Source: a virus
Taxonomy: Duplodnaviria; Heunggongvirae; Uroviricota; Caudoviricetes
Length of the DNA stretch: 6,410 bases
Direction: 5' to 3' (one strand)
IMG/VR virus record: IMGVR_UViG_2671180892_000009
Location: 1 to 6,410 of that record
Shown: positions 3,030 to 6,410 of the stretch, one piece after another
How positions within the stretch are numbered: the stretch's first letter is position 1
Layout: each line of letters begins with the position of its first letter
The notes under the pieces: model-generated
The model's database searches: none
The model's input: only the letters and a program-made list of their open reading frames with translations
Told to the model about the DNA's origin: nothing
Made by a program: the position numbers and the translations under genes

Positions 3030-4946
3030 TTATCCTCCACTCAGAGCAGCCGCGATTTCTTCAATAGTCATTTCATCGTCGTCCTGTTCATCTCTTCTGG
3101 CGCGGGCCAGTGCATCCAGATCCAGTTGCCACCGCTGAACGGAAATGCGCAGCGCTGCATAGGCATACACCAGACAGTCCAGAGCTTCATTACGCCGTTT
3201 TCTGGCATCCCACTGGAGTTTCACCCGCCCGTTCACAACTTTTTCAACCAGCTCTTCTGCCACGAGTTGTTTAGCTTCAACATCAGAAAAAATGTCCGGG
3301 TTATCCGGAAAACGGAAGGTATACGGTGCGACTTCACTGGCAGATACCACCGGCAGGGCAAAACGCGCATACAGCATTTCCTTGACGGTATCGGAACCCA
3401 CCTCACACAAAAACACCCCACGCTGGTTTCGCTTTTTTGGCATGGTGATCACCGGCTTGCCGTACACCGACGCCCCTTTGATGGGGAGCACAAAAAAAGT
3501 GCCGTGTTTTCTGGATCGCTGATACACAATGTCCTGGTCAATACCACCGGTATCCCAGCAGACGCGGGAAATGGAAATTTCAGTGCCATCTGCATGACGG
3601 TATTTTTTCCGGATCACGGCATCAACGCGTTTAAGGGTGTCCTCATCTTCCGGTCTCCCCATGATGATCTGCTTGTCAATCAGAAAAGCTTCTTCGCCAG
3701 GAGCCCAGCCCCAGACATAAATCTCATAACGGTTTTTCTGAGAGTCGATCCCTGCGGTCAGGTAAACCACCCGCAGGGGAACCTGCGCATCATAGTGGCA
3801 GACTTTTTCCAGCAATAACTCAAAGCTCAGTTTTTCTGCCACAGCCTCTTCATAAGGCTCCCCCAGCGTGGTGTTAATGAACGTCTTGACGCCATTCGGA
3901 TCCTTCAGTGCATCAAGCCAGTCATAAACAATCTGTACCCAGGTGGTGAACGGGCTGTATGCCGTCCAGATGTGGTACGAGATTGAGCGCGGTGGCGGGA
4001 TTTCCTCATCACCGGCGCTGTAAAATGTCAGACCGTCACGCGTCCACATCCCGGTATTGTCACAAATCCACCGCCCGTCGGTCTGGTCAAGTTCCGACTG
4101 ACGGATCGCGCAGCCATTATGTTCACACAGGTAATACACCGTCTCCGGCTTGCCCTTCTCCCATTTCAGGCCAAAGGTTGTCGCATCATCGCCAAACTTC
4201 AGATACTGGGCTTCACCACAATGAGGGCATGGCACATAAAACCGCATAAAATGTGCAGATTCGTTCGCGGCTTTTTCAATCTGGCAAAAACCTTTAATTT
4301 TGGGCGTTGAGCCGCGTATGGATTTAGGCCATACCGAACCTTCGATACGCTTATCGCCAAGCAGAGTTGGTGAACCTTCTTTTTCCACATCCGGTTCAAA
4401 CGAGGAGAGTTCGTCATAGCAGACCACATCCACAGATTTTTCACGGTAGTTTTTGGCAGCAGCTCCGCCCAGACACCAGAATCCCACACCGGAGGAGAAA
4501 CGTTTCAGGGTAAGCGTGTTGTCCCGATGTTTTCTGCCAAACCACGGAGCCAGCTCCAGTAATACAGGAACGTCTCTTATCGTTGGTTCGACATGGGATT
4601 TCATAAAATCTTCTGCCGCAGAATCTGTCGGCTGAAAAAGCAGGCTGTTACGGGATTTGTGTTCAATAAAATAAGCCTCCACCCCCAACAGCATTTTGGT
4701 GTAACCAACACGCGCCGATTTAATCAGATTAACGGTGCGGATCCGGTCATTCCCCATGCTGTTCATGATGGCAACCTGAAACGGCAGTGTTTCCCATTGC
4801 CCGGGAGTATATGAAGACTCTTTTGGCAGATAATAATGCTGATCAGCCCACTGAACTGTCGTCAGTGGTACCGGAATATTGAGAGATACAAGCCCTGTTG
4901 CTATCGCACCGGCTGCATTAGCTGCCTTCTGTGCGTCTGAAATCAT
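3030..4946 (-). CDS. A: Terminase large subunit gpA-like, about 638 aa. Start at the ATG at 4944-4946; a TTG at 4947-4949 is also in frame.
   Basis: Collinear similarity to lambda gpA over the whole length, for example [88 protein letters not shown] and [19 protein letters not shown]. Near-identical size to lambda gpA (641 aa). No internal stops. Confidence 0.95.
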
Positions 4947-5466
4947 CAATCCACCCGCCTACGTTCTCACCAGCTTTAGCTGCAACGTTGGAGGCTTTTG
5001 CGATTTCAGTTTTCACCACATCAAGGTGTGACGGTGAAATATCCGGATATTTACGCTGTAATGTCAGCGGCACACGTACAAGTATCCCCGAAATCTCCTG
5101 TGCCACACGTTGCAGAATGAAGGTAAACAATTCCGTTTCCAGTACCAGCCCTTCTTCGCGGGCATTTTTCAGTTCCTGTGCATCAGCCTGTGCTTTTGTG
5201 AGTCGGTAGCGCTCATAGTCAATGGTGCCGGGTTGTAAATCTGATTCCGCAGCCGCACGCAAATCCTCGGTCTCTTTGCGGAGTTTTTCGTTTTCAATAT
5301 CGGCTTCGCGCTGCGCATACCACTGAATTGCCATGGCGGTATCAAATACAGATTCAACCCCCTTACTACCACCAGAGACACAAGAGAGCCCCTGAGACTG
5401 CCAGCGTTCAATCGTTCGTGGATCCACGTTGAAAATTTCCGCGAGCTTCTTTTTATTAACCTTCAT
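4918..5466 (-). CDS. nu1: Terminase small subunit Nu1-like, 182 aa, with an N-terminal HTH DNA-binding domain. Start at the ATG at 5464-5466; the ORF track starts 6 codons upstream at 5484. The 3' end overlaps the start of A.
   Basis: [26 protein letters not shown]...[57 protein letters not shown] closely parallels lambda Nu1 (MEVNKKQLADIFGASIRTIQNWQEQG...[56 protein letters not shown]). Confidence 0.9.
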
Positions 5467-5490
5467 AAAACATTTCCATATCAAATGCAG

Positions 5491-5690
5491 GGTCCGACAT
5501 GGAAGTGCTCAAAAACGTCTTTTTCGGGCACTTTCATGTCGGACCTTTTACGGATGTGATTGATGAAAAAACAATGAGTTATACACGAGAAGTACCGACA
5601 CGCTTTTTCCCGAAAAATTTTCATAAATAGCGAAAATCCGCGCCGCTGCCGCCCCGTGGCAGACCACCCCACCGGAAGGACCCGTACAAA
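5491..5690 (-). other. Lambda-type cos site on the minus strand: cosQ-like element (about 5668-5686), cosN with a candidate 12-nt cohesive end GGGCGGCAGCGG (5643-5654), and cosB with candidate Nu1-binding repeats (18-bp inverted repeat arms at 5491-5508 and 5528-5545).
   Basis: The minus-strand sequence ACGGGTCCTTCCGGTG...GCCACG GGGCGGCAGCGG CGCGGATTTTCGCTATTTATGAAAATTTTTCGG aligns with the lambda right end / cos / left end as I remember it (ACGGGTCCTTTCCGGTG...GGTTACG GGGCGGCGACCT CGCGGGTTTTCGCTATTTATGAAAATTTTCCGG). The distance from cosN to the Nu1 start is about 180 bp, as in lambda. Confidence 0.75.
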
Positions 5691-5828
5691 TAGAGTTATT
5701 ATTAATTACATTTACAGTAGGAATGATGTACATCATTGAAACACCATTCAGTCATATACCGACAGCATTCGGTGTTGCACTTCATAACTCTGCGACTACG
5801 GTTATAAAAGCATTGGCTACTTTTGCCA

Positions 5829-6119: not shown

Positions 6120-6410
6120 TGATCCTACCCACGTAATATGGACACAGGCCTAAGCGAGGTTCTGGTTTTCAAATTGTTCCGGACTGAGGCCGCCACACCA
6201 ACTGTGCCGCCGCCACCGATTGTAATCACATTCGATATAATTAAACACCGTTGCCCGCATTATTTCCCGGCTGATAAAGTGTTCTCCATGGATACATTCC
6301 ACTTTCAGCGAATGAAAGAAGCTTTCCACGCAGGCATTATCGTAGCAGCAACCTTTTGCGCTCATACTTCCACGCAGATTATGCCGTTTCTGTTGCGCCT
6401 GATAATCTGC
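6120..6410 (-). mobile_element. IS3 (IS3 family) insertion sequence, right-end portion, with the terminal inverted repeat beginning TGATCCTACCCACGTAATATGGACACAGGCC at 6120. The element continues beyond the window edge.
   Basis: The terminus starting with TGATCC matches the IS3 end sequence as I remember it, and the adjacent ORF encodes the C-terminus of the IS3 orfB transposase. Confidence 0.9.
6150..6410 (-). CDS. insF: IS3 transposase orfB (InsF-like), C-terminal 86 residues of the DDE catalytic domain. 5'-partial: the N-terminus lies beyond the window.
   Basis: The frame is open to the window edge. The translation [86 protein letters not shown] matches the IS3 InsF C-terminus with two substitutions relative to the copy I remember (L to Q, K to Q). 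Confidence 0.9.

Follow-up and report, generated by a model that had tools for sequence, protein, structure and literature searches.

The discrimination between lambda and phage 21 in DNA packaging is set by residues 20 and 24 of the small terminase subunit (TerS) and by bp 56 and 59 of the R3 box (Feiss et al., PMC4669245). Other lambdoid phages are organized differently: the N15-type simple cosB has one critical R3 site and is devoid of an IHF site, or of R2 and R1, before the TerS gene (PMC4669245). The nicking region, cosN, has been analysed as well. cosQ, the left half of cosN and its CG flanks are conserved, and mutations at bp 7-12 of cosN have minimal effect; for example, no phenotype is seen with C11G, whereas G2C, its partner by symmetry, cuts the yield about tenfold (PMC4669245). 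Nature has made similar changes: N15 and phiD326 differ at bp 9 and 12, and Gifsy-1 differs at bp 8, 9 and 11 (PMC4669245). As for phage 21 itself, the records M81255 and OL657228 annotate R3, I1, R2, R1, I2 and I0.

The DNA described here, referred to as the window, is a stretch of 6,410 nucleotides whose genes lie on the minus strand. An initial annotation, made from the letters alone, recognized a cos site in it, and alignment with phage 21 and lambda bears this out: a lambda-family cos occupies 5489-5683 (-). Most probably, with a likelihood that we put at roughly 85%, this interval is the complete cos of a lambdoid prophage and works as the cos of phage 21 does. The reading rests on homology, on positions and on protein identities, from which binding, nick positions and activity are predicted.

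Layout of the cos Site

Read on the minus strand, the site runs ...GGGTCCT-TCCGGTGGGGTGGTCTGCCACG/GGGCGGCAGCGG/CGCGGATTTTCGCTATTTATGAAAATTTTTCGGGAAAAAGCGTGTCGGTACTTCTCG..., where the strokes mark the predicted nicks. It opens with the cosQ heptamer GGGTCCT (5677-5683, -), the packaging-termination signal, which is the same as the lambda/21 heptamer in the alignments. In lambda-like cos sites the heptamer stands about 23 bp upstream of the nick; the spacer here is 22 nt. The 22-bp nicking region cosN, CCACG/GGGCGGCAGCGG/CGCGG, follows at 5638-5659 (-) and aligns column for column with the cosN of lambda and 21. It has the left half GGGCGG and the CG dinucleotides flanking both nick positions, the features that are conserved according to PMC4669245. 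When the symmetry of cosN is counted from the sequence, 7 of 11 pairs match, versus 5 of 11 in lambda. The predicted 12-nt 5' cohesive end, GGGCGGCAGCGG, is located at 5643-5654 (-) by positional homology to the phage 21 record, which begins at its own cohesive end.

Next comes I2 (5611-5625, -), an IHF-like site or cosN-cosB spacer element, which agrees with the annotated I2 of M81255 at 14 of 15 bases. The string CGCGGATTTTCGCTATTTATGAAAATTTT, previously noted as nearly identical to lambda, is indeed so, at 28 of 29 bases (lambda reads CGCGGG...); it corresponds to the right flank of cosN plus I2, and not to cosQ as had been proposed.

The putative small-terminase sites then follow one another. 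The R3 box, AAGCGTGTCGGTACTT, adjoins cosN at 5590-5605 (-), bp 50-65 from the end, and matches phage 21 R3 at 15 of 16 positions. A weaker third copy of the repeat had been suspected at 5579-5594; the copy exists, and it is this R3, whose TGTCGG core falls at 5595-5600. Between R3 and R2 lies I1, a putative IHF bending site, TAACTCATTGTTT (5569-5581, -), which agrees with the annotated phage 21 I1 at 11 of 13 bases and occupies the same position, bp 74-86. R2 (5532-5547, +) is inverted with respect to R3 and R1; the minus strand reads AAGGTCCGACATGAAA, and the match to phage 21 R2 is 16 of 16. R1, TTCCATGTCGGACCCT (5489-5504, -), has 13 of 16 bases in common with phage 21 R1, with the CATGTCGG core kept. 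Finally, the interval 5468-5482 (-) aligns with the putative I0, an IHF site, and ribosome-binding region of M81255; about 10 of the 15 bases are conserved, a hint that the two may be equivalent.

With three R boxes, of which R2 is inverted, and an IHF site separating R3 from R2, all upstream of the ATG at 5466, the arrangement is that of a complex cosB. The presence of the three boxes and of I1 sets it apart from the N15-type simple cosB, N15 being compared here by its description in PMC4669245.

Among annotated phages, phage 21 is the best BLAST match in the phage collection, with 83% identity over window 5305-5657, i.e., from cosN through the 5' part of the small-terminase gene. The order, orientation and spacing of I2, R3, I1, R2 and R1 are alike in the two (R3 is at bp 50-65 in OL657228 as well), and so are the R boxes, at 13-16 of 16 positions, and the cosQ heptamer, which is identical. 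Differences begin at the cohesive end, GGGCGGCGACCT in phage 21 versus GGGCGGCAGCGG in the window, and continue upstream of it: the left flank is TTACG in phage 21 and CCACG in the window, the spacer from cosQ to the nick is 23 nt instead of 22, and the cosQ-cosN intervals, GGTGGGGTGGTCTGCC in the window and GTCGATCCAACAGGTT in phage 21, are unrelated. Lambda shares with the window the architecture of cosQ, cosN, I2, R3, I1, R2 and R1, along with a terminase of the Nu1 and gpA families, and it differs in the sequences of the R boxes, in cosN's right half and in the TerS helix.

Terminase Genes and Packaging Specificity

The cos site adjoins, as a lambda-like cos is expected to do, two overlapping terminase ORFs that Pfam assigns to the Nu1 and gpA families. 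The small subunit gene (4918-5466, -) encodes 182 amino acids of the Nu1/gp1 family (Pfam Phage_Nu1, E = 2e-83); its product matches solved Nu1-type DNA-binding domains and shares 94% identity with phage 21 gp1 and 53% with lambda Nu1. The large subunit gene (3030-4946, -) encodes a 638-aa protein of the gpA family, with the ATPase and the cosN-nicking endonuclease (Pfam GpA_ATPase and GpA_nuclease). Both domains are intact, and the protein has 82% identity with phage 21 gp2 and 65% with lambda gpA.

Which specificity does this terminase have? The initial annotation suggested for the repeats a distinct Nu1/cosB pairing, of the sort that separates phage 21 from lambda, and stated that they bear no resemblance to the lambda R elements. 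The latter claim went too far: 12 of 16 positions in R3 agree with lambda R3, and a core of the TGTCG/TTTCCG type is common to all of the boxes. Nevertheless, lambda specificity does not fit the data, given that R2 has only about 9 of 16 bases in common with its lambda counterpart and that the recognition helix of lambda Nu1 (RTIQNWQEQGM) departs from that of the window at residues 20, 21, 24 and 27. The residues Q20/E24 in lambda and E20/S24 in the window, taken with the R boxes, make up the classic difference in specificity between lambda and 21.

The remaining choice is between phage 21 specificity and a new one, distinct from both. In favor of novelty one can cite the low similarity to the lambda boxes just mentioned and the changes with respect to phage 21, three in R1 and 11 substitutions in TerS. 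Still, all of these substitutions fall outside helix residues 17-27, and this helix is the same as in phage 21 gp1. R2 shows no difference from phage 21 R2, each of R3, R2 and R1 keeps the CRTGTCGG core, and both R3 bp 56 (G, at 5599) and bp 59 (G, at 5596) are as in phage 21. All four lambda/21 determinants, two in the protein and two in the DNA, are therefore in the phage 21 state. A new specificity is thus very improbable: with near-identical R boxes, G/G at R3 bp 56 and 59, a TerS at 94% identity and the same helix, the cosB/TerS pair is, as judged from these sequences, of phage 21 specificity. The pairing thought to be novel is that of phage 21 itself.

If the site functions in the manner of phage 21 cos, R3, the inverted R2 and R1 would be bound on circular or concatemeric phage DNA by dimers of the gp1-like small terminase, and IHF would bend the DNA at I1, bringing R3 and R2 together. 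The complex bound at R3, R2 and R1 would anchor the gpA-like large terminase on cosN, and this enzyme would nick twice, 12 bp apart, at ACG/GGGCGGCAGCGG/CGCGG, leaving 5' cohesive ends. Packaging would proceed toward the terminase and head genes, namely toward lower window coordinates, and at termination the next cos would be recognized via cosQ, cosN and I2.

The Inverted Repeat

The 18-nt inverted repeat with one mismatch, GGTCCGACATGAAAGTGC / GCACTTCCATGTCGGACC, reported at the outset is real, and its assignment to putative small-terminase sites at the R2 and R1 positions agrees with the alignments, in which the two arms are homologues of phage 21 R2 and R1. R2 forms the left arm and R1 the right arm. 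The arms extend to 25 nt (5491-5515 and 5521-5545), over which they are 88% complementary, and the 14-mer TTYCATGTCGGACC is present twice with zero mismatches; the figure available for chance, a mean of 1.16 matches per shuffled window, was counted at up to 3 mismatches.

The R boxes of the window sit in longer units of about 27-28 nt that start with TTTTT(C)GRG (window 5488-5617), and the same is seen in phage 21. These extended units are found at 5590-5617 for R3, at 5520-5547 (plus strand) for R2 and at 5489-5515 for R1. The repeated unit is thus longer than the annotated 16-bp boxes.

Is this palindrome a pair of binding sites, or could it also, or instead, act as a structure? The start codon of terminase comes 25 nt after it, and a hairpin at this place in the late mRNA leader, or a cruciform, might regulate the translation or transcription of terminase. 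The predicted RNA hairpin is strong (-38 kcal/mol, z-score -6.6 versus shuffles), nine diverged cosB sequences of the 21 type retain the palindrome (89% of cells are paired), and its 25-nt arms run past the 16-bp R boxes. Yet any pair of inverted protein-binding sites is expected to give the same signal. The stem has no U-tract after it (nor did a terminator scan flag this long stem), and covariation is weak, with 124 of 500 shuffles reaching the observed count of pairs changed on both sides; the compensatory changes come from a single sequence, the IMG/VR contig L027. What argues for a repeated binding unit rather than a stem is R3, which has the extended 27-28-nt unit of R2 and R1 (TTTTTCGGG-N-CRTGTCGG-ACC) in direct orientation. 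A regulatory hairpin or cruciform is hence unlikely; inverted protein-binding sites account for the R2-R1 palindrome, and a structural role is not called for by the evidence.

The contig L027 deserves a mention of its own. About 95-175 bp from its cohesive end it combines a 21-type R3 (GTCGGTAC) with R2 and R1 that are both lambda-like TGTCGTTTC, and its cosB may be a hybrid or an intermediate.

Two other sequences in the window recall these repeats or their symmetry. An R-box-like TCCCATGTCGAACC occurs at 4585-4598 (-), inside the large terminase gene, with 2 mismatches to the R1/R2 consensus; as some 1.2 matches would arise by chance when up to 3 mismatches are allowed, this candidate for a fourth R site is probably fortuitous. 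A perfect 16-bp palindrome, AATGATGTACATCATT, is located at 5722-5737, about 40 bp upstream of cosQ, and is nearly conserved in phage phiSTEC1575-Stx2k (AATGATGTGCATCATT).

The Variant Cohesive End

The variant part of the site includes the cohesive end. The 12-mer picked out initially does occupy the cohesive-end position and is a diverged allele; the divergence from GGGCGGCGACCT, the end of lambda and 21, affects bp 8, 9, 11 and 12 with bp 10 conserved, and not the last four bases as was claimed. Compared with the mutational and natural variation already described, the cosN of the window keeps, in its sequence, every conserved element and varies only where variation is tolerated.

A known allele close to it is that of Gifsy-1, whose cosN has the same changes at bp 8, 9 and 11 (CAGCG). 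Gifsy-1-type contigs carry GGGCGGCAGCGT, so that the allele of the window is the Gifsy-1 allele plus T12G. Gifsy-1-type sites differ in having T at bp 12, a TTACG flank, a 23-nt spacer and a cosB of their own (AGATCCGT repeats).

To place the allele among others, cos sites were collected from IMG/VR with bp 8-12 left free in the search pattern. At least 118 read GACCT, at least 3 AGCGG and at least 1 GACCG; these counts are biased by the search patterns and are not frequencies. The GGGCGGCAGCGG allele is also present in the IMG/VR contigs, and AGCGG always comes with a CCACG left flank, instead of TTACG, and with a 22-nt spacer between cosQ and the nick, instead of 23. For this cosQ-cosN module, consisting of the 22-nt spacer, the CCACG flank and ends of the form GGGCGG[C/G]AGCG[G/T], the name "type B" is coined here.

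The length of the spacer is worth noting in itself. It is 22 nt in every cos with a CCACG flank (5655-5683 in the window, and likewise L014, L091, L135, L203, L216, L244 and L245). Sites of the lambda, 21 and Gifsy-1 types have 23 nt or, in rare cases, 24, which makes a consistent difference of 1 bp in the element thought to position the termination nick.

Type B is not restricted to one recognition system. It stands next to a 21-type cosB in the lineage of the window and in strain TW10690 (GGGCGGGAGCGT), and it also accompanies cosBs of at least four other types, including those of the isolated phages cdtI, phi458, mEp460, PhiR40_1, HannyBb and 569R4. The cdtI record starts with GGGCGGGAGCGT and finishes in ...CTGCCACG. 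cdtI, phi458, mEp460, PhiR40_1 and HannyBb have in common with the window the 22-nt spacer in the form TCCGGTGGGGTGGYCTGCCACG, the CCACG flank and AGCG at bp 8-11; they differ from it by a G at bp 7 (GGGCGGGAGCGK). Beyond cosN these phages differ as well: their cosB reads CGCGGAAAAAGGCTAG..., their small terminase is unrelated, and their 699-aa large terminase (TerL) is 25% identical. The exact combination of a type B cosN with a 21-type cosB was found in no isolated phage of the phage collection.

The site in E. coli TW10690, a strain from human stool, represents a fourth 21-type cosB sub-lineage (L254), 84% identical to the window and with the end allele GGGCGGGAGCGT. As this is yet another end allele, the 21-type cosB occurs with at least three cosN alleles.

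Two scans addressed the module more widely. A 14-mer scan of viral contigs gave mostly chance matches, and these were filtered by requiring cosQ upstream. In species-representative genomes, 4 of 13 matches to the type B cosN were real cos sites, all with a non-21 cosB: one in E. coli, one in E. ruysiae and two in MAG contigs that are probably mis-binned, the other matches being chance occurrences in GC-rich genomes. This second scan speaks little to the spread of type B, as it includes a single E. coli genome. The two MAG contigs (L263 and L265), labeled "Veillonella parvula" and "Bacillota bacterium", have a type B cosN with a cdtI/phi458-like cosB and are probably mis-binned enterobacterial phage DNA.

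A full-text literature search with the 12-mer GGGCGGCAGCGG and related alleles returned only unrelated primer and construct sequences, and no paper or record on the allele. In brief, the diverged cosN is an allele that already exists in sequenced phages and prophages, and its end module has been little discussed.

Mosaic Structure and Its Possible Origin

BLAST against the phage collection separates the two sides of the site. Upstream of cos the window resembles cdtI and phi458, at about 79-80% identity, and downstream of it phage 21; the cos is thus a mosaic, and sequence comparison puts the joint within cosN, near bp 13-18. It illustrates that cosQ-cosN, the end module, reassorts independently of cosB-TerS, the recognition module.

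How might such a mosaic arise? Ordinary recombination could produce it. It could also come from the cyclization of a chromosome that ran from a 21-type cos to one of type B, a mixed-end event of the kind that Feiss et al. analysed for N15 and lambda (PMC4669245).

A broader proposal is that type B constitutes a second cohesive-end compatibility group in the lambdoid phages of Escherichia, which would partly hinder gene flow whatever the cosB specificity. Type B ends and lambda/21 ends mismatch at 4-5 of 12 bases, and in hybrids between the two end types represented by the window and phage 21 the ends would be mismatched at four positions; by comparison, a fourfold drop in viable yield has been seen for the 2-bp mismatch of N15 and lambda. 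Were the proposal true, a chromosome started at one type of cos and finished at the other could fail to cyclize, and the lineage of the window would be a successful crossing of the barrier, in which a 21-type terminase and cosB captured a type B end module; the capture could have needed an adaptation of TerL to the shorter cosQ spacing. We offer this idea as speculative, and consider that the odds are against it.

Distribution in E. coli

The same cos, at 95% identity or more, was found in 21 of 5,426 complete E. coli genomes, each time with a terminase small subunit gene annotated under the match. Three of these genomes come without a source; wherever one is stated, it is cattle or farm, with the exception of one human isolate. 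In seven complete chromosomes of cattle or farm origin, e.g., that of EC11, prophages are 100% identical to the window over the 281 bases from 5440 to 5720, and the 12-mer GGGCGGCAGCGG was conserved in all six of the E. coli homologues sampled at 95% identity or more. The flanks in EC11 are those of a lambdoid prophage: the Q antiterminator, holins, endolysin and bor, then the terminase, portal, capsid and tail genes.

Among the prophages of cattle E. coli, as this site shows, the packaging specificity of phage 21 is in circulation together with another cohesive-end allele. The site provides a natural example for a conclusion of the Feiss laboratory, according to which the right half of cosN is free, and what is conserved is cosQ, the left half and the contacts of R3. 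From a practical standpoint, GGGCGGCGACCT should not be assumed for 21-like phages in annotation or in the prediction of ends. Otherwise this is ordinary biology, the phage 21 repeats joined to a rarer, already sequenced version of the cutting site, and it matters little.

One can ask whether such a site is alive. It might be the relic of a defective prophage, in which the variant cosN and the spacer shortened by 1 bp make a poor or dead substrate for a 21-like large terminase. In favor of this, an IS3 interrupts the stretch from the lysis genes to cos, and the exact cos is absent from the cultured phages of the phage collection. The site also has the look of a recombinant whose modules usually work with very different terminases, as the distance to the cdtI TerL illustrates (just 25% identity). 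Against decay is the fact that the cos adjoins an annotated, unflagged small-terminase gene in the 21 genomes, which come from several countries, and that in two of them or more, among which are RM8082 and C5, the upstream flanks are different and lack IS3 sequence. Moreover, the positions known to be critical are all conserved, from cosQ and the left half and CG flanks of cosN to the R3 contacts, and TW10690 provides a second 21-type lineage with a type B allele, which indicates that the pairing has persisted. A relic is accordingly an improbable explanation, and a working cos of the phage 21 kind remains the preferred one.

As for the IS3 itself, one end of it (terminal repeat TGATCCTACCCACGTAATATGGACACAGG...) lies at window 6121-6410, 467 bp upstream of the nick, and its transposase is annotated in EC11. 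Even with cos intact, the insertion may impair the late transcription of the window prophage or affect the length of its packaged genome, by making it over-length.
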